Part shown: one piece after another, positions 5,335-15,190 of the stretch | Layout: each line of letters starts with the position of its first letter | Position numbering within the stretch: position 1 is the stretch's first letter | From: an uncultured Alphaproteobacteria bacterium | GTDB lineage: Bacteria; Pseudomonadota; Alphaproteobacteria; Rhizobiales; Beijerinckiaceae | Direction: 5' to 3' | Assembly (NCBI GenBank): GCA_963770035.1 | Contig: CAVYON010000028.1 | Span: 2,458 to 66,457, forward strand | Length of the DNA stretch: 64,000 nucleotides | Translations under genes and position numbers: made by a program | Notes under the pieces: generated by a model | What the model was told of the DNA's origin: nothing | The model's input: the letters and a program-made list of their open reading frames with translations, nothing else | Database searches by the model: none

Positions 5335-6537
5335 CTAATTGGCGCGGGCCGACAAGCTTTCCGACTTTGTCAGCTTCGCTGTCTTGGGGTCGTAGACGAA
5401 ACCGGCGATCGTGCCGTCCTTGATCCTTTTGACGGCCTCATCGATCGCGAACAGCGGAACGAGAAACCACTCCTTTGGAATGACGGGCTGGCCGAACCGG
5501 TCCTTGATTTCGATCTCCAGTCGAGCCGGCGCGAAGATACGGTGAATGAGATTTCGAGCCGGGTGCGATTGATGTTGTAAAGCTCGTAGGTGGCGACGAT
5601 CTCGACGTCGGCCATGAGAAACGTCGGCTGCAAGCGCGCGCCCTGGACGCGCTGCTTCACGTGCATGTTCGTGACGCCGATCTTGTGAACGAGGTCCCGG
5701 TTGGCCGCGACCAGCGGGTGATCGGATTTGCTCCTCAGGACATAGATTGTCCCGCTGGCTTGGTCGTCTTCGGCAAGTTCCTCGGAGAAGAGCGGGCCTG
5801 CGACGGGATCGGTGATCCGTCGCGCCGTTTCATCCCCGTTGAGCGCCCGCTGAAGCGACCGCATCAGCATGTTGCTCTCGGTGCCGTTGTCGAAAATCAC
5901 CCGTAGCCGCGCGTCGGTTTTCCCGTGCGGGGTAGTGAAGGTGTCCCCGGCCTCGGCGACGTAGGCCTTCTGTCCCTCAAGGACAAACCATGCGCCCTTC
6001 CTAATTTCGGCCTTCAACTCAAAGGGGCGGGTCTGTCGCGTTCCTTCGTCGAGTTCCTTCTGAATCGTCAGGAACAGCGGCTTGAACGTGTCGAAGTCGG
6101 CGCACTTCTGGCGAGTGGCGACCTCTTCCGCCGCCCGCCTCTCGGCGCCGCTCGCGACGTGACGCAGATCGGTGATGTCGGGTTCGCCGTCGGCGCCCTG
6201 CAAGTCGGCGAGCAGTTCATCCTCATCAATCGGCTCCTCCGGCTCTCGCAACCGTCGCCTCCGCGCCTACCAGCAGGCCCTGATGATCGAGCGGGGCAAG
6301 CAGCGCCCGGCAATCGTCAAGCGCGCGCAGGCGATCGAGACGGACGGCATACAGCCGCTCGAAAATGTCTCGGTCTTCGCCATGCCGAGGCGTGCGGCCA
6401 TGAGTTTCTACAAATCGCTGGATTTCCTCGAAACCCGCGATAATCCGCTCCTCGCGCGGCGGCCGGCCCGACGATTTCTCCGGTGGCGCGAAGTCCTCGA
6501 GTTCGGCGCTCAGTTCGTCGAGGTCGACATCACTCAT
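5335..6537 (-). CDS. YeeC-like T5orf172/GIY-YIG-family nuclease (two apparent frameshifts, about 6245 and 5555)
   Basis: ORFs 6226..6537 and 5370..6251 join. GTIYVL..HKIGVT and terminal PKEWFLVPL motifs; the corrected frame stops at TAG 5335-5337. Confidence 0.8.
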
Positions 6538-8587
6538 AGCGCCCCTCTTTCTTGAAGCGCATGAAGGCGGCCGCGCCCTCGGCCATCTTATTCTCCCAGG
6601 CGTCGGCCGACGCGATCGACGGCAGCCGGCCCCTCTCCTTCTTGAACTTGGAGGCCCGGACCGCGAGGGTCTTTGCCTCTTCGGGCGTCAGGGTCGTACG
6701 CTTGGCGGCGATCGCCGCCTTGACCTGTATGAGCCGTTCCTCGGTCATGCTCTTGGCGAGAATCGCGTAGGCCTCGCCGAACGGATTGATCTGGTCGATC
6801 AGATCGATGTCGAGGCCGGTGACGTCCATCGCATATTTGCGCACGCCGTCGACAAAAGCGGTATTGCCGCTCTCTTCGCCTTCAGCGAAGCCGCCGCCGG
6901 CGGCCCCGCCGCTGTTGGCGATTTCCTTCGCCTTCTGGGTGAGGTTCAGCGCGGCGACGGCGTGCTGTCGCACCGCCTCCTGATCCGCCTCGTCCAGTTC
7001 GGGATATTTGTCCTTGACGATCTTGCCCATCCGGACCTGGGTCAACTCCTCCGGGACCAGTTCCTCGTCGAAAATACCGCGCTCGATCGTCGTCTTGTCC
7101 TGCACGAAGGCGGCGATGACCTCGTTCAGGTCCTCCTGACAGATGCGCGTCGCCTCCTCGCTGTTCGGAGTCGCAAGCCCCTTGATCTCGATCTGGAACT
7201 TGCCGCTTTGCTCATCGAAGCCAACGTTGCATTTGTCGGGGTCGTAGCCGCCCTCGCCGTAATCGAAGCCCGGCGTCGGACCATTGTTCGGATTCTTCGG
7301 CTTGAATTCGAAGCGCGGCGCCAGCACCTGCTCCATCAGCAGGCTCGCCGCGATCGCCTTCAGCGTATCATTCACCGCGCCGGTCACAGCGTCGTTGGCG
7401 GCGTCCGGCTCGGCGATCAGGTTCGAGAAGTGCGCGCGCGTCTTGCCCGGCGCGTCGCGGGTCGCGCGCCCGATAATCTGCACGATCTCGGTGAGACTGG
7501 CGCGGTAGCCGACCGTCAGCGCGTGTTCGCACCAGATCCAGTCGAAACCCTCCTTCGCCATGCCGAGCGCGATGATGATGTCGACGTAGTCGCGATTGTT
7601 CTTCTGCGTCGGGTCCTTGAGCGCGGCGGAGACCTTGTCCCGCTTGGCGGGATCATCGTCCACGAGGTCCGCGATCCGCAACAGGCGCCCCTCGGGCGTC
7701 TTGACGAGCTGGAAGCCGGTCGCGGGGTCGGAGCCTTCCCAGTTCCCCAGCGCCCCAAAGATGTGCTCGACCTCCTTGACCTTGTCCTTCGTGCTCTCGC
7801 GCGAGTTGACGTTCGGGATATGGACGATCGTCTTCTCGGAGGGGTCGAGCACCTTGAGGATGTCCTCGGCATAGGCGCCGGCGTAGAAGAAATAGCCGAT
7901 GTCGAGCTGCTTCAGATATTCGTAGCCGTTGAGCTGCTCGTAGTAGGTGTAGGTGACGGTGTCGAACTTCGCCTCGTCCTGCGGGGTCAGCACGGCGTCG
8001 GCGTCGCCTCGGAAATAGGAGCCGGTCATCGCGACGATATGCACCCGGTCGCGGGCGATGAACTGGGTCAGGTGCAGGCCGAGCTTGTTGTCCGGATTGG
8101 CCGAGACGTGGTGGAATTCGTCGACGGCGATCAGCCGGTCGTCGAACGCCTCGACGCCGAACTGAGCGACGGCGAAGCGGAAGGTGGCGTGGGTGCAGAC
8201 CAGCACCTTGTCGCCGCTCACCAGAAAGGCGCCGACCGCCTTGACCTTGCCGCCGTTGTCGGGGCCGGGGGCGTTGCAGAGGTTCCATTTCGGCTCGACG
8301 CGCCAGTCGGCCCAGAAGCCGAACTTCGACAGCGGCTCGTCCTGAAAGCTCGCGCCGATGGTCTTTTCGGGCACGACGACGATCGCCTGCCTCAGTCCCT
8401 GGTTCTGGAGCTTGTCGAGGGCGATGAACATGAGCGCGCGGCTCTTGCCGGACGCCGGGGGCGACTTGATCAGGAGATACTGTTCGCCCCGCTTCTCATA
8501 GGCGCGTTCCTGCATCGGCCGCATGCCCAACGCGTTGGCCTTGGTCGAACTGCCGTTGCGGGCATAGGAGACGGAGACGGAGGGCAC
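6530..8587 (-). CDS. YeeB-like superfamily 2 (DEAD/DEAH) helicase/ATPase
   Basis: Walker A SPPASGKS, Walker B DEFHH, motif III MTGS, motif VI QIIGRATRD; stop overlaps the start of the yeeC-like gene. Confidence 0.88.
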   Translation of the reverse strand: MPSVSVSYARNGSSTKANALGMRPMQERAYEKRGEQYLLIKSPPASGKSRALMFIALDKLQNQGLRQAIVVVPEKTIGASFQDEPLSKFGFWADWRVEPKWNLCNAPGPDNGGKVKAVGAFLVSGDKVLVCTHATFRFAVAQFGVEAFDDRLIAVDEFHHVSANPDNKLGLHLTQFIARDRVHIVAMTGSYFRGDADAVLTPQDEAKFDTVTYTYYEQLNGYEYLKQLDIGYFFYAGAYAEDILKVLDPSEKTIVHIPNVNSRESTKDKVKEVEHIFGALGNWEGSDPATGFQLVKTPEGRLLRIADLVDDDPAKRDKVSAALKDPTQKNNRDYVDIIIALGMAKEGFDWIWCEHALTVGYRASLTEIVQIIGRATRDAPGKTRAHFSNLIAEPDAANDAVTGAVNDTLKAIAASLLMEQVLAPRFEFKPKNPNNGPTPGFDYGEGGYDPDKCNVGFDEQSGKFQIEIKGLATPNSEEATRICQEDLNEVIAAFVQDKTTIERGIFDEELVPEELTQVRMGKIVKDKYPELDEADQEAVRQHAVAALNLTQKAKEIANSGGAAGGGFAEGEESGNTAFVDGVRKYAMDVTGLDIDLIDQINPFGEAYAILAKSMTEERLIQVKAAIAAKRTTLTPEEAKTLAVRASKFKKERGRLPSIASADAWENKMAEGAAAFMRFKKEGRYE

Positions 8588-8658: not shown

Positions 8659-8781
8659 CCCTGGCAAAATTAATTTTGCGGTCTGAAAGAAGCCAGCCGG
8701 AACCTCCGCAATATCGGACGTGTCAACGTCCTCATCCGGGATCGCCTCGATCTCAGCGACGCGCTCTTTGGAGATAGGCAT
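8659..8781 (-). pseudogene. Truncated BrnA-type antitoxin (N-terminal ~40 aa only)
   Basis: MPISKERVAEIEAIPDEDVDTSDIAEVPAGFFQTAKLILP follows brnT with overlap. No C-terminal RHH-like segment in any frame before the yeeB start. Confidence 0.6.
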
Positions 8782-9041
8782 CGAATGCTTTCCTTTCGTT
8801 CCTTGTCGCCTTCCGCGCGCTGATGATCCGTGTCTTTCCATCTCTCTCCGTGGGCGCCACGCACACAACCGTCGTGCCGCCTATGAGCCCAAAACTGATC
8901 TCGCGCTCCTCGGAATGGTGCGTGGGATCCGGCCCGGAAACGACAGGTCCCTCCCAGATCGTCGCCGCCTCCTCGAAGCTGAATTCCGTGTTTCGTGAGA
9001 TTGGCGGCATTCTTTGCGGGGTCCCACTCGAACTGGTCCAT
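8753..9041 (-). CDS. brnT: BrnT-family ribonuclease toxin (apparent +1 frameshift at about 8983)
   Basis: FEWDPAKNAANLTKHGI joins SFEEAATIW..EEREISFG..RIISARKAT when one base of GAATTC (8981-8986) is removed. Confidence 0.82.
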
Positions 9042-9163
9042 AAGGATGCCCCATCCCTTAGGTGCGCTTCCGCCAGGCCGTTATCAAGCTTTGGTTGACT
9101 TGGCGGCAGTAGGCTCGTCTTGAAGCTCGCGCCGACACCGCAACGGAGGGTTCGTTGGGATCG

Positions 9164-9532
9164 TCATGGGTCGGAGTCCGGCGGGATCAGGGGACGGAGC
9201 GCGGCGATGAGGCCCGGAAGTCTTTCGGTCGTCACGCGCCAGACGATGTCGAGCCGCACATCGTCGTAGCCGTGGATAAGACGGTGGCGCAGGCCGGTCA
9301 TCTCGCGCCAGGGAATGTCCGGATGGGCGGATGAGAAGGCCTTCGACACCTTTCCCGCCGCCTCGCCGATCACTGCCAGTTTTCGGATGACGGCGCTCTG
9401 ATGCAGGGCGCTGGCGAGGAAGGCGCGCTCATCGAGGCCGGCGACGAAGGAGAGCGCGTCCTCGGCCGCGAGCCTCATGTCGAGCAAAAGCGCGGGATCG
9501 CGCGCGCCCTCGTCCGGACGATCAGGCGGCAT
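9164..9532 (-). CDS. HepT-like (DUF86) HEPN ribonuclease toxin
   Basis: AVIRKLAVIGEAA, IPWREMTGLRHRLIHGY (Rx4HxY motif). Confidence 0.88.
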   Translation of the reverse strand: MPPDRPDEGARDPALLLDMRLAAEDALSFVAGLDERAFLASALHQSAVIRKLAVIGEAAGKVSKAFSSAHPDIPWREMTGLRHRLIHGYDDVRLDIVWRVTTERLPGLIAALRPLIPPDSDP

Positions 9533-9836
9533 AGACAGGCTCGGCCCCGTTCAGGATCAGCCGACGGCGGATATAGTTGCGGCTCGTCTCGACATCCTTG
9601 CGATCGACGAGATCCACCGGCCGTTCGAGCAGCGCTTCGAGCGCGTCGCGGAAGTCGAGATAGCGCGTTAAGCCGTCATCCGGCGGTTCGAACTCAACAA
9701 GAAAATCGACGTCGCTGGTCTCGGCGTCGAAATCTGCGCCGCGCGCCGCCGAGCCGAAGACATCGAGCCGCGCCACGCCGAACCGCCGGCAGAGGGTTTG
9801 CAGTTCGACGCGCTTTTGTTCGACCGTCGCATGCAC
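9522..9836 (-). CDS. MntA-like minimal nucleotidyltransferase antitoxin
   Basis: VFGSAARG..SDVDFLVEF and RPVDLV motifs; overlaps the HEPN gene. Confidence 0.88.
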   Translation of the reverse strand: MHATVEQKRVELQTLCRRFGVARLDVFGSAARGADFDAETSDVDFLVEFEPPDDGLTRYLDFRDALEALLERPVDLVDRKDVETSRNYIRRRLILNGAEPVYAA

Positions 9837-10032: not shown

Positions 10033-10164
10033 CTTCCTCCCCCTTGTGGGGGAGGATTGAGGAGGGGGGTCGCACTGAACTTCGAAAGTTTGGCGTCCTT
10101 CCCCTTGCAAATGAGAGATCAGCGCGACCCCCCATCCCTGCCTTCCCCCACAAGGGGGGAAGGA
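10033..10164. repeat. Long palindromic REP-like element, copy A
   Basis: Arms ctcccccttgtggggga..ggggggtcgc / gcgacccccc..ttcccccacaagggggga. Confidence 0.75.
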
Positions 10165-10202
10165 GAACGCCTTCAGTTTGACCGGCGCGCATCACCAGGC
10201 AG

Positions 10203-10449
10203 TTACTCCTCTCCTATCCCGGCTCCTCGAGCCTCGGCCCTTCGCGCGCTGCCCTTCGGCGGCTTCCCGCCTTCGCCATCCTTGGCGGCGGTCATCTTCG
10301 TATAAAGCTCGAACAGCTTTTCCAGCCGCTCCGTGTCATTTTTGAACCGGCGGCCAATGTAGATGCGCTCCAGCGCCTCGTCGTTGCGCTCGTGCGCCTC
10401 TCGCAAGTCGGCCGGCATGGCGTCGGGGTCGTAGAGGTCGGCGATCGTC
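10203..10449 (-). pseudogene. Orphan second copy of the methyltransferase C-terminus (ATIADLYDPDAMP...GIGEE*)
   Basis: ORF 10203..10499; codon usage differs from the in-gene copy. Confidence 0.85.
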
Positions 10450-10455
10450 GCGCGG

Positions 10456-10591
10456 CTTCCTCCCCCCTTGTGGGGGAGGATTGAGGAGGGGGGTCGCACT
10501 GAACTTCGAAAGTTTGGCTCGTCCTTCCCCTTGCAAATGAGAGGTCAGCGCGACCCCCCATCCCTGCCTTCCCCCACAAGGGGGGAAGGAG
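10456..10591. repeat. Long palindromic REP-like element, copy B
   Basis: Near-identical to 10033..10164. Confidence 0.75.
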
Positions 10592-10628: not shown

Positions 10629-13541
10629 TTACTCCTCTCCTATCCCGGCTCCTCGAGCCTCGGCCCTTCGCACGCTGCCCTTCGGCGGCTTCCCGCCTTC
10701 GCCATCCTTGGCGGCGGTCATTTTCGTGTAAAGCTCGAACAGCTTTTCCAGCCGCTCGGTGTCGTTCTTGAACCGGCGGCCGATGTAGATGCGCTCCAGC
10801 ACTTCGTAGTTCGCTCGGTGTCGTTCTTGAACCGGCGGCCGATGTAGATGCGCTCCAGCACCTCGTCGTTACGCTCGTGCGCCTCTCGCAGGTCGGCGGG
10901 CATGGCGTCGGGGTCGTAGAGATCGGCGATCGTCGCCGGGAAATGCGCCTCGCGGGCCAGCAGGATGTCCTCGGCGCAGCGGGTCAAGTCGGCCTTGTTC
11001 TTTTCGGTCAGCGTTGGGACCGGGAAAGTGTTCCAGCCGAGGTTGTTCGAATATCAGAATTCAGTTCGCAGTCTTACCGCAAATAGTAGATATCCATACT
11101 CAGATGAAGTTTGGATGTAATGAATAGAAAAGTCTACTAGAGCGAAGGCTTTGTAAATGGCAAAAGCTAGATGTTGTAATTACTATATTTCGAGTTCCAA
11201 CAGGCCGACTGGTAAATACTGCTCTCCTTTCCGAAGAAACCTGTGGGCACCAAAAATTGCGAGTCATCGACAAGTATCTCCTATTGAACGAAATCTGGTG
11301 CGGTCGCGCCGTAAGTGTGGCCGCAACTTCGCCGCCGTTTTTCCGGTACGCTAAGGACATTATCAATTCGCGCTGGACACCTCTGGCACTTTCTCGGATC
11401 AATCAGACTAAATCTGTTATCGTCATAGCCACAGGCAATAGCGAAGCCACCCATGATATGAACTCCGCTAGTTCCAGTAAGCTCGACGTATTATGAAGAC
11501 AAACTCCGGTTCGAGTCGAGCTAAGCCTTCGGGCTGAAGCTGCGTCAAGAAAAAGATTTCCCCCGTCATAAGGCGCATTGCCGAGTGATCATCGGAGACA
11601 GACCATTGCTGATTCTTAGATTTTCCGACAAACGATGACATCGTCGCCTTCAACAAGATATGCATTTATATTTATGCACTCTCCTTGGGACGATACTCGC
11701 CATAAATGTGTTTTTGCCGAATATGGCGTTTCGTTAGTCAGTCCAATGATGGTACAGGAAACACCGGCATTATGTTGTGCGATTGTTCGCCCATTTGAAA
11801 GAGTGCGATAGGCAAATTCAAGCCGGCATGCATAATTATAAACAAGTGGCCAAAGAACAGATACATGTATTCCTTGACAGATAGAATTAGTCGTAACAAA
11901 CGTGACGGCGTTTATCTCCAAATCTAAGAAACTGACTAAATCTTTATTATAAACCAGCCCGCACACGTAGTCTAAAGATTCGTTATGATTTCTCATCATG
12001 ACACAAATATTTGAGCCATATCATTTTTCTGATCGCTGGTCATGTTTCTTTCCCCCTATGTATGGAGGATTGCCGCATATATAAGTTTCTCCGCCTGCAT
12101 TCTCGAAATCGATTTGCGCTTGATCAAGCGGCGTGCTGAAACAGATCGTCGGCGTGCCAGCTTCACGCCCGTCCCTGTCGGCGGACAAACGCTCAACCAA
12201 TCCAGCCGCAGCGCATTTCCGCAAGTGATCCAGTTCTCCGCGTTCAGCGGCAGGAACTCGGCCAGCGCCTCCTTCTGGCCCGCGGTAGAGCACGTCGCAC
12301 TGGATACTCGGCGATGATGAGGGCAAGCCGCGCGATCTCGGCCGGAAAGTCGCGCAGCTCGATCCCGCGAAAATTCGTCAGCGGAATATCGCTCTTGCAG
12401 CCCGTCTTCCTTTCGTCGCCGGTTGATCTCCGCCTCGATCGCCCGCATCTCCTTGTAGGCGATGACGAGGAAATTGCCGGAGCCGCAGGCCGGGTCGAAC
12501 ACCCGGATCCGCGCCATGCGCCTGCGCAGGTTGAGCAGCATCCGGGAATTGTCGCCGGCCTCCTCCAAACGCGCCCGCAGGTCGTCGAGGAACAGCGGGT
12601 TCAGCACCTTCAAAATGTTCGGCACGCTGGTGTAGTGCATCCCAAGCGCGCCGCGCTCCTCGTCCTCCGCGACCGCCTGGATCATCGACCCGAAAATGTC
12701 CGGGTTGATCTTGGTCCAGTCGAGCCGGCCGACGTGAAGGAGATAGGCGCGCGCGGCCCGGCTGAAGCGCGGCGCGTCCAGGCTGCCCGAAAACAGCCCG
12801 CCGTTCACGTAAGGGAAGCGCGTCGGCCCAGCGCGGCAGCTTCGCCGCCGCGCGGTCCGCGCCCTTGGTGTTCATCGCCCGGAAGATCGCGCCGATCACC
12901 TCATGGGTGTTGGACGAGTCCCGTTCGCTCATCTGTTCGATGGCGCCACTGAAAAGCGAGTCGCCCAGAAAGATGTCGGTCCGTTGCGCGAAGAAGCAGA
13001 AGATCAGCCGCGCCATGAAATGGTTCATGTCGTGGCGGCGGGCGGCCGAGCCCCAATCGGGGTTTTCCTTCAGGAGCTCGACATAGAGCCGGTTCAGCCG
13101 GCTCGTCGCCCTGATGTCGAAGGCGTTCTCGCTGATCTGCTGGACGGTCGTAATGCCGGCGAGGGGCAGGAAGAAGCCGAAATGGTCCGGGAAGTCGGCG
13201 TAGCGGCAGGCGACGGTCCCGCCGCCGCCGACGTCCTCGGCTTCGAACCACTCGCCGTCCGTCGCCAGAACGAATTTCGCCTTCGCCTTGGCCGTCGCCG
13301 GGCTGGCCTTCAGCGCCGCCAGCGTTTTCGTGACCTCGCCGGAGGCGGCGACGGCGATATGGATGTTGTTGGTCTGAAGGACGCCGCCGAGGTCCGACCT
13401 GTTCGATTCGCCCTTGCGGAGGCGTTTGAGCGTCGTCTCTTTGTTGCCGAACGCTTCGAGGAAGGCGAACGGGAACTCCTGCGGATCAAACGGCCGCTCG
13501 GCCAGCCTGGTTACCGCCTCTTCGATCTCGACAGCGTTCAT
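10629..13541 (-). CDS. YeeA/MmeI-family N6-adenine DNA methyltransferase with target-recognition domain (multiple frameshifts as sequenced)
   Basis: RLIFCFFA, YVNGGLF, INPDIFGSMIQAV, GMHYTSVPNILKV, motif I VFDPACGSGNFL, motif IV CGNPPY, then FVTTNSICQG, VSSERR, GWNTFPVP and TIADLYDPDAMP C-terminal motifs spread over several frames. Confidence 0.85.
11050..12130 (-). other. AT-rich segment covering the methyltransferase target-recognition region
   Basis: Abrupt drop to roughly 40-45% GC (estimated by eye) inside a gene whose flanks are GC-rich; homologous motifs continue through it. Confidence 0.85.
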
Positions 13542-13714
13542 TTTCTAGAATCGCCCACCGGGCCGACAGTCCCCGCAACGCAGCATCGATAGCTCGTTTT
13601 TATGCGGCCACGCCAGGAAGATGTTTTGAACGCCGCTTTGCGCCACCGGCATGAGCGGCCCTCCCCCGCCTCCGCAAAAATCCCGCCCCGCTGAAACCTT
13701 TCGGCGTTTTGACC

Positions 13715-14003
13715 CCGTCACCGCAAACCCCGCATCTTGGAAAGAAAGCTGGCGAAAGTGTAATCTTCGCGCCACATTTTTGGCCCGGATCTCCCCGATG
13801 ACCGTCGCCGCTGAACAGGAAATTCCGCTCAGCCAGAACTGGACCTCGAGATCGGCAGACGCAGGATGTCGCGCAGAGCAGAAACGTTGATTCCACTGCC
13901 CGTCGCTTTGCTGGCCGTGAGCGTCGCCGCGCACGCCACGAGCCGCTCGCCCACCGCCGACCTGATGGATCCGTCGCCAACCCGTCCGTCAAGGAAATGG
14001 TGA
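13715..14003 (+). pseudogene. Degenerate copy of the cupredoxin promoter and signal-peptide region (repeat of 15039..15338)
   Basis: Shared blocks such as gaaagctggcgaaa.tgtaatcttcgcgcc, gaactggacctcgagatcgg and gacctgatggatccgtcg. ATG at 13866 gives MSRRAETLIPLPVALLAVSVAAHATSR.. then a deletion, a frameshift and a stop. Confidence 0.88.
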
Positions 14004-14830: not shown

Positions 14831-14910
14831 GCGGCCAATGGGCGGCGGAAGGATGAGGCGGCCTGTAAAGGTTCAACCTGATCTCCTGAATCAATTCAAG
14901 CATCCCGCAA

Positions 14911-14997
14911 CCGTCATTGCGAAGAGCGACCCCCGGGTCGAAGAGCCCGGGGGGACGAAGCAACCATGGAATCTTCGCCTTCGGCTCGCAATGACGG
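14911..14997. repeat. REP/RIME-like element with terminal inverted repeats ccgtcattgcga...tcgcaatgacgg
   Basis: 12-bp perfect terminal inverted repeat and an internal ccccggg/cccgggg hairpin. Confidence 0.75.
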
Positions 14998-15190
14998 CGG
15001 CGGAACTTGGCGCACTTATTTTGCTGTGTGTCCTAACACCGTCACCGCTAACCCCGCGTCGTCGGAGAGAAAGCTGGCGAAACTGTAATCTTCGCGCCGC
15101 ACTTTGGGCCCGCATCTCCCGGATGACCATCGCCGCTGAACAGGAAAGTCCGCTCAGCCGGAACTGGACCTCGAGATCGGGAGACAAGGG

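Follow-up and report, generated by a model that had tools for sequence, protein, structure and literature searches.

The middle of a DNA methyltransferase gene from an uncultured bacterium of the Beijerinckiaceae (Alphaproteobacteria) is AT-rich and carries many frameshifts and stop codons, whereas the two ends of the gene are GC-rich. The gene lies in a stretch of 64,000 nt, which is called the window here. Two questions arise from this locus: has the part of the enzyme that reads the DNA been exchanged, and is the gene truly as damaged as the assembly suggests? An earlier note on this DNA had proposed that the specificity was swapped by recombination with a homologue from a low-GC donor and had attributed the damage either to decay or to a poor consensus.

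Pfam searches with pieces of the gene gave the order MmeI_N, MmeI_hel, MmeI_Mtase, MmeI_TRD and MmeI_C, and a frameshift-aware alignment to intact homologs covered residues 1 to ~908. Motif I (FDPACGSGNFL) and motif IV (GNPPY) are both present in the translation. MmeI has the same five-domain architecture and the same gamma-class motifs I and IV (Callahan et al. 2016, PMC4833311). Unlike in MmeI, the N-terminal domain has no detectable match to the nuclease core, and the assembled gene lacks an open frame. The alignment of an intact relative to MmeI (5hr4) spans residues 85–915; residues 1–84 of this relative and residues 1–140 of the window protein gave no alignment to MmeI with phmmer. The family consensus displays no obvious (D/E)XK motif in a comparison with the MmeI nuclease residues D70, E80 and K82 that was made at the sequence level only.

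A MmeI-like methyltransferase, apparently without a recognisable REase motif, with an SF2 helicase and then a T5orf172 gene behind it in one orientation, is also the arrangement of the DnmA(YeeA)-YeeB-YeeC clusters of Bacillus subtilis and Vibrio crassostreae (PMC9973331); the likeness to the B. subtilis cluster is one of architecture, as judged against the description in that paper alone. The same order is found on one strand of the window (Table 1), and in relatives the three genes are contiguous. In contrast to the DnmA clusters, two toxin–antitoxin modules (HepT/MNT and BrnT/BrnA) and REP elements separate the methyltransferase from the helicase in the window. Neither PADLOC nor NCBIfam assigned a named system to the helicase or the T5orf172 gene. 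The 3′ end of the methyltransferase gene is rearranged. Two repeat families have offsets of 426 (D1) and 485 (D2), which differ by 59, the length of a tandem duplication near the end of the gene. Downstream of it, the 3′ end of the gene occurs once more and, together with two REP-like elements, forms a tandem duplication of ~424 nt. The REP-like element gave 116 BLAST hits distributed over many contigs of this genome.

Table 1. Features of the methyltransferase locus (positions in the window)
Feature	Position	Strand	Remarks
MmeI-family (DnmA/YeeA-type) N6-adenine DNA methyltransferase gene	10629..13541	-	no open frame as assembled
N-terminal MmeI_N-like domain	13068..13541	-	Pfam PF20464, E 1.4e-35, residues 1-158; frame intact
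GC-rich first half of the methyltransferase domain, with motif I FDPACGSGNFL	12127..12820	-	six single-base insertions
AT-rich specificity cassette	11042..12126	-	from change points; GC 0.433, GC3 0.39
NPPY codons (methyltransferase motif IV)	12060..12071	-	codon usage already AT-rich
GWNTFP codons	11022..11038	-	high GC and DNA identity to relatives return here
C-terminal arm: end of the TRD model and MmeI_C helical domain	10812..11041	-	GC-rich; MmeI_C E 1.2e-15; without frameshift
59-nt tandem duplication	10753..10870	-	puts the final ~45 codons out of frame; NDEVLERIYIGRRFKNDTER occurs twice in the translation
Duplicate of the 3′ end of the gene (10203-10451) and two REP-like palindromic elements (10033-10165, 10456-10591)	10033..10591	.	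repeats D1, D3, I1-I4
YeeB-like SF2 helicase	6530..8587	-	Pfam DEAD, ResIII; intact, no frameshift relative to the homolog in G039
YeeC-like T5orf172/MUG113 gene	5365..6519	-	two frameshifts: ~6239 (+1), ~5553 (-1)

The break in composition is sharp. Between ~11050 and 12100 the GC content falls from 0.62–0.66 to 0.38–0.52, and a two-change-point fit on GC placed the borders of the cassette, within which GC is 0.433 compared with 0.646 for the remainder of the gene. With a genome mean of 0.651 (sd 0.040), only 0.04% of all 1045-nt windows of the 7.6-Mb genome are equally low. After frame correction, the three codon positions of the block have GC values of 0.51/0.39/0.39, compared with 0.62/0.44/0.86 for the N-terminal arm. 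The drop near GNPPY and the recovery at GWNTFP described in the earlier note were reproduced, and the family motifs FVTTNSICQG and PQVSSERR do persist through the block, as had been stated there. The codon-position identities of the cassette to the Burkholderia glumae homolog are 0.65/0.79/0.33. This pattern is as expected under purifying selection and indicates that the cassette is real coding sequence.

More than the target recognition domain (TRD) is contained in the block, however, so the earlier statement that exactly this region was replaced has to be widened. The block begins ~18 codons upstream of NPPY and stops at LGWNTFP. Besides motif IV and the loop that follows NPPY, it contains the latter half of the methyltransferase domain and almost the entire TRD, corresponding to MmeI_Mtase ~155–259 and MmeI_TRD 1 to ~192; the Pfam positions actually matched inside it are 166–252 and 88–154, respectively. 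In MmeI numbering this is about aa 465–815. The TRD of MmeI comprises aa 621–825, and the MmeI residues K487, S488 and K489, directly after motif IV, contact the minor groove (PMC4833311).

Relatives matched query positions 1462–2943 and 213–504 at 77–85% identity and left the middle unmatched; in none of the relatives that matched both arms was there a DNA match to the AT-rich cassette. The C-terminal arm up to the cassette border is 81–87% identical to relatives at the DNA level. Three paralogs within one complete genome (G039) are 97–100% identical in their arms and 45–70% in the middle. Taking same-genus relatives and these paralogs together, arms of 77–100% DNA identity enclose unrelated cassettes. 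Over 2016 family pairs the identities of arm and cassette are uncorrelated (r=0.05), and 27 of these pairs have arms at least 88% identical and cassettes at most 55% identical. This incongruence supports a swap of the specificity cassette, as the earlier note had proposed. The same is seen when the block and its flanks are searched separately: the arms are 89% identical in amino acid sequence to a same-genus MAG, and the block is at most ~60% identical to homologs from Burkholderia, Methylosinus, Pseudomonas and the environment, so that arms and block differ in nearest relatives as well as in identity instead of hitting the same taxa uniformly. The nearest relatives of the cassette are 76–86% identical among themselves and only ~60% identical to the window cassette, a distance that counts against the reading preferred below. 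From these alignments we infer recombination as the mechanism of the swap.

That MmeI-type enzymes swap such cassettes is known already. Morgan and Luyten (2009, PMC2731914) described two Microcystis homologs, IPF4888 and IPF5080, which share 98.5% identity outside the TRD and 55% within it, and the situation here resembles this natural exchange in that near-identical proteins differ in the specificity region between conserved arms on both sides. It differs in that the exchanged unit is larger than the structural TRD and starts before motif IV. Recombination of specificity modules via conserved flanks is likewise known from domain movement in Type I, III and IIG systems of Helicobacter pylori (Furuta and Kobayashi; PMC3983042). 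Unlike there, no second copy of the cassette and no donor was found within this genome, and the exchange appears to connect different lineages, even phyla, rather than copies in one genome. A phase-variable shufflon with silent cassette copies or an inversion switch was rejected on the same finding and because no inverted repeats flank the block.

The low-GC donor did not hold up. Two cassette-only protein searches found no such donor, the frame correction of the query having been improved for the second; the best named matches all came from high-GC taxa (Proteobacteria) and reached at most 59% identity. No sister cassette of high identity was present among 5.8 billion proteins and 80 named loci, the best being ~60% identical in amino acid sequence, and around four top environmental matches the GC is 0.56–0.63, i.e. 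host-like. Moreover, in all 51 intact family members GC3 is lower in the cassette than in the arms, by 0.21 on average. This includes low-GC hosts, with GC3 of 0.50 in the arms and 0.32 in the cassette of L092 and of 0.53 and 0.30 in G048. Averaged over the family, GC3 forms a step function with its steps at NPPY and GWNTFP. Since the dip is common to the whole family, it is by itself no sign of a recent import from a low-GC genome.

Using four guide proteins, 20–27 frameshift events per ~1.05 kb were called in the cassette, the count varying with the guide, and more than 80% of them were +1. The 1.48-kb N-terminal arm contains six. The earlier impression that frameshifts are denser in the block than in its flanks was therefore correct. 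Most of the stops in the raw frames are mere out-of-frame consequences of the frameshifts; three to four in-frame stops persist after frame correction. All six shifts of the arm lie within the 680 nt adjoining the block (at ~12819, 12391–12405, 12303, 12281, 12158 and 12136). Each is one extra G, C or T that is present only in the window in a DNA alignment to three relatives (G010, G028 and G039), and all guide proteins called them as +1. The first ~720 nt of the gene and the first ~230–250 nt of the C-terminal arm are free of frameshifts. Over the ~1.8 kb of cassette and adjacent arm almost all events are +1, deletions and indels larger than 2 nt are absent, and the excess length of the damaged stretch is about the number of insertions. 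As assembled, the gene has at least 26 frameshifts and no uninterrupted open reading frame. That the calls merely arise when diverged proteins are aligned was rejected, as the same program called zero frameshifts on six intact control genes.

The same insertion signature is found elsewhere in this genome. Genome-wide, an HMM returned 530 +1-like and 162 −1-like candidates, versus 4 and 11 in 400 kb of a complete relative, a calibration by one imperfect control with a lower-GC genome, 17 training ORFs and a smaller share of the sequence called coding. The HMM missed the closely spaced shifts of the arm, so dense patches are undercounted. Compared with intact orthologs, a molybdopterin oxidoreductase gene (C37:286095-288562) has ~12 shifts, eight of them +1, and further dense patches were seen in a histidine kinase, a carboxyltransferase and ABC permeases. 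At one shift per 40–50 nt, the density in the cassette is 4–5 times that of the other measured noisy patches. Generally poor assembly of AT-rich DNA was ruled out by other AT-rich islands of the genome, which carry intact ORFs of 400–700 aa. That the block is the worst hit is explained neither by general noise nor by AT-richness. No multiple +1 shifts were present at the other MFD-named MAG loci of the MmeI-type family, and the noise thus belongs to this assembly (and that of G010) rather than to the whole series.

The gene could still be a true pseudogene, inactivated after or because of the acquisition of a new specificity cassette and with mutations densest in the imported part. The concentration of damage at the methyltransferase locus and the residual in-frame stops would agree with this, as would the 3′ end broken by the 59-nt and 424-nt duplications, the insertion of two toxin–antitoxin modules and REP elements ahead of the helicase, and the two frameshifts in the partner T5orf172 gene, which fit a decaying locus; elsewhere in the family, loci are cut short close to the same boundary or interrupted by an IS element. 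The decay of bacterial pseudogenes is, however, deletion-biased, and here ~1.8 kb accumulated almost only +1 insertions while 720 nt at the start of the gene and 230 nt on the C-terminal side stayed undamaged. In addition, the cassette has kept the codon-position pattern of purifying selection, and the same insertion signature occurs in housekeeping genes and throughout the genome. We regard a pseudogene as unlikely and consensus noise as the likely source of the frameshifts in the methyltransferase. Between the two origins of the damage offered in the earlier note, poor consensus is accordingly favoured over protective decay, and the lack of a continuous frame is probably in part an artefact.

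The consensus could also be chimeric, built from co-occurring strains or species that share the arms, in which case the block would not be linked to the arms in any one cell. The arms are 73–89% conserved over many taxa, so reads of several populations could pile up, the noisy stretch (12820–11050) reaches into the arm as mixed alleles would produce, and the cassette is equidistant (~60%) from all members of its own type like an interleaved consensus. Yet both junctions lie exactly where intact relatives switch cassettes, the REP element beside the 3′ arm is one of this genome's own, the arm within the noisy stretch is still 85–90% identical to a same-genus relative, and the cassette, being of one type, can be aligned over its whole length to a single guide protein; we find a chimera highly improbable. 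Finally, the cassette may be as old in this lineage as the arms, its low GC3 being part of a family-wide regime that could arise, for example, from GC-biased conversion or stronger homogenisation in the recombining arms and AT-biased drift in the fast-evolving cassette. The lower cassette GC3 in every intact member, low-GC hosts included, and the steps of the family average argue for such a regime. On the other hand, same-genus relatives with arms 72–85% identical carry other cassette types, arm and cassette identities are uncorrelated, and the GC3 difference of 0.47 in the window exceeds that of all 51 members (maximum 0.42), and a cassette without recent import seems quite improbable to us.

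We consider it reasonably probable, then, that the gene encodes an MmeI-family methyltransferase with a swapped exchangeable cassette and that its frameshifts are mostly consensus error. The enzyme would be of the DnmA/YeeA type, with a YeeB-like helicase and a YeeC-like T5orf172 protein as its usual operon partners, to judge from gene order. Its putative DNA-reading module extends from ~18 codons before NPPY to LGWNTFP and takes in the loop behind NPPY, what remains of the methyltransferase domain, and the TRD. Homologous recombination within the two conserved arms may have exchanged this module for a different allele, of a type that also occurs in homologs of Burkholderia, Pseudomonas, Mesorhizobium and Methylosinus. 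As all base-contacting parts would travel together, the methylation specificity, and any restriction depending on it, would be altered in one step. The low GC3 of the cassette is the extreme end of the family-wide dip and does not prove a low-GC donor. Most likely, the ~30 frameshifts are erroneous single-base insertions at a place where the consensus of a long-read-type assembly is poor, and the gene itself may be intact save for its rearranged 3′ end.

The mosaic is real: the AT-rich block is the exchangeable specificity cassette of the family, in which every DNA-contacting element moves jointly, and the GC drop says little about when or from where a cassette arrived. The apparent decay is probably assembly noise, which matters for the annotation of pseudogenes and for inferring protective inactivation in this draft genome and others like it. 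Tentatively, and with considerable doubt, the GC3 step at NPPY and GWNTFP might be a compositional rule of the MmeI-family cassette itself, reflecting either modules that are intrinsically AT-richer and circulate as a pool across phyla, or arms made GC-rich by frequent (GC-biased) conversion that the cassette escapes. If general, such a step could help to recognise exchangeable specificity modules in defence genes that are still uncharacterised.

A sliding window along the methyltransferase gene showed a drop in GC content from 0.62–0.66 to 0.38–0.52 between about 11050 and 12100. A two-change-point fit across the gene bounded the drop by positions 11042 and 12126 (GC content 0.433 inside, 0.646 outside); so low a value is found in 0.04% of the 1045-nt windows of the 7.6-Mb genome. 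The GC content at third codon positions (GC3) is 0.86 in the N-terminal arm and 0.39 in this block, the cassette. Codons ending in A or T begin already at ETYICGNPPY, and in the DNA alignment the identity of the relatives returns at LGWNTFP. The position and landmarks of the block proposed in the earlier note are thus correct.

Pfam matches on pieces of the gene follow the order MmeI_N, MmeI_hel, MmeI_Mtase, MmeI_TRD and MmeI_C, and the cassette spans MmeI_Mtase from ~155 to 259 and MmeI_TRD from 1 to ~192. In MmeI the methyltransferase domain comprises residues 301–620 with motif IV at 481–484, followed by the target-recognition domain (TRD, 621–825) and the C-terminal bundle (826–919); minor-groove base contacts are made by K487, S488 and K489 directly past motif IV (PMC4833311). 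By these limits the block exceeds the TRD, so that an exact replacement of the TRD, as claimed before, is not supported. The block takes in the latter half of the methyltransferase domain together with the TRD, i.e., all DNA-reading elements of the protein. No alignment of the family's N-terminal domain to the MmeI nuclease core was obtained, and therefore "methyltransferase" is a safer name than "restriction enzyme".

Features of the methyltransferase locus and frameshift events called along the gene
Feature	Position	Strand	Remark
T5orf172/MUG113 (YeeC-like) gene	5365–6519		two frameshifts: ~6239 (+1), ~5553 (-1)
Helicase	6530–8587		intact; between T5orf172 gene and methyltransferase
BrnT toxin	8753–9010		insert between methyltransferase and helicase
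HepT-like/MNT nucleotidyltransferase pair	9164–9836		insert between methyltransferase and helicase (insert region 8753–9836)
REP-like palindromic element, ~130 nt	10033–10165, 10456–10591		two copies
59-nt tandem duplication	10753–10870		within methyltransferase C-terminal domain; repeats NDEVLERIYIGRRFKNDTER
230 nt past cassette			0 frameshift events
GWNTFP codons	11038–11022	minus
Cassette	11042–12126		20–27 frameshift events with four guide proteins; >80% +1 (one extra base)
NPPY codons	12071–12060	minus
N-terminal arm, 680 nt adjoining cassette			6 frameshift events
First 720 nt of gene			0 frameshift events
Methyltransferase gene	start 13541	minus	Pfam MmeI domains

In the relatives the methyltransferase is directly followed by a helicase (weak DEAD/ResIII matches) and then a T5orf172/MUG113 protein. 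This gene order is that of DnmA(YeeA)-YeeB-YeeC, known from B. subtilis; in Vibrio crassostreae the arrangement reportedly confers protection from some phages (PMC9973331). Unlike these adjacent genes, methyltransferase and helicase of the window are separated by HepT/MNT and BrnT modules. The 3' end of the methyltransferase gene is tandemly duplicated along with the REP-like element, the two element copies flanking the duplicate 3' end; the element gave 116 BLAST matches on many contigs of the genome. The final ~45 codons are put out of frame by the 59-nt duplication, which may be genuine or may stem from the assembly. Upstream of the gene, 13545–13934 and 14891–15187 have similar translations (…AAEQE.PLS.NWTSRS.D.GC.AEQ.R), which points to a further repeated element.

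A DNA search of 60 relatives matched the arms in three same-genus genomes and a fourth from the same order (12061–13542 at 72–85%, 10812–11103 at 81–85%), whereas the ~960 nt between them were unmatched in all four. One complete genome, G039, contains three paralogs with arms 97–100% and middles 45–70% identical. Across an alignment of 64 family members (2016 pairs) the identity of arm and cassette is uncorrelated (r=0.05), that of arm and arm is not (r=0.47), and 27 pairs combine arms of at least 88% identity with cassettes of at most 55%. For the arms of the window the nearest relative is a same-genus MAG (89% aa, first 240 residues), whereas its cassette, after frame correction, is closest (~60% aa) to a homolog cluster of Burkholderia glumae, Methylosinus, Pseudomonas, a Thermoanaerobaculia MAG and environmental contigs. 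Block and flanks thus do not share the same taxa at uniform identity, and the specificity swap put forward earlier stands. The swap reading is supported, but events of this type are already known and recurrent across the MmeI-type family; natural exchange of the specificity region was described by Morgan and Luyten (PMC2731914).

Two cassettes from the three paralogous operons of G039 (loci L023, L024) share 150 nt at 100% identity, so breakpoints lie inside the cassette too. At five further family loci (L045, L051, L052, L088, L117) the alignment stops at residue 452–545, near the NPPY border, and in the relative G028 (L022) the gene is interrupted there, with a transposase-like ORF at 5532–6659. 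This suggests that rearrangements or highly divergent replacements are concentrated at the NPPY junction.

A low-GC donor, as the earlier note assumed, found no support: all named best cassette matches come from high-GC taxa, and these homologs are themselves GC-depressed in the cassette (GC3 0.42–0.64, arms 0.64–0.79). In all 51 intact members of the family taken from named genomes, low-GC hosts included, GC3 is lower in the cassette than in the N-terminal arm (mean difference 0.21, maximum 0.42). The family average is a step function, down at NPPY and up at GWNTFP, for which conservation within the arm fails to account. The difference in the window is the largest seen, yet lies on the same continuum. 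The GC3 dip is a trait of the cassette class and alone gives neither the date nor the source of the import. The first 240 residues are 73–89% identical in genomes of Alphaproteobacteria, Gammaproteobacteria, Nitrospira, Geobacter, Acidobacteriota, Verrucomicrobiota and Bacteroidota (L041–L120); horizontal transfer has therefore distributed the operon very widely.

Frameshifts were called with a purpose-written frameshift-aware protein-to-DNA alignment, which gave none in six intact control genes, including pairs with differing cassette types and an AT-rich cassette. The six arm events are clean single-base insertions unique to the window in the DNA alignment with relatives. Neither deletions nor larger indels were found in the damaged region, and the surplus length of the cassette approximates its insertion count. 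With the frame corrected, the three codon positions show identities of 0.65/0.79/0.33 to the B. glumae homolog, the pattern of a stretch evolved under purifying selection.

The earlier note had offered protective decay or a poor consensus as the cause. An insertion-only spectrum, kept length and a signature of selection are unlike bacterial pseudogene decay and favour consensus noise, which we consider the probable origin of the frameshifts. A codon-phase HMM that counted frame changes on the same strand with no stop close by gave 692 genome-wide, 530 +1-like and 162 -1-like. The same procedure on 400 kb from a complete relative yielded 4 and 11, respectively, so that what this assembly has in excess is specifically the insertion type. 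Ordinary genes (histidine kinase, carboxyltransferase, ABC permeases, molybdopterin oxidoreductase) contain shift clusters, the last with ~12 shifts, eight of them +1, in sequence otherwise well conserved with intact orthologs. Dense patches occur, e.g., at C37:286095-288562, C25:84791-88090, C45:232221-234110 and C43:22308-24797 (contigs of this genome, G000). In G010, a same-genus genome of four contigs, insertion-type shifts run all along the gene copy. Named relatives in the genus have contig names in long-read-assembler style, and we infer that G000 is a long-read assembly. Against noise alone speak the shift density of the cassette, 4–5 times that of other patches, and the clean assembly of other AT-rich islands of the genome. 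Some local factor must therefore add to the noise, such as a minor allele with low support or an allele mixture. Of the two causes offered in the earlier note, protective decay is less likely than a poor consensus, an assembly artefact. Caution is advisable with any pseudogene called in this genome.
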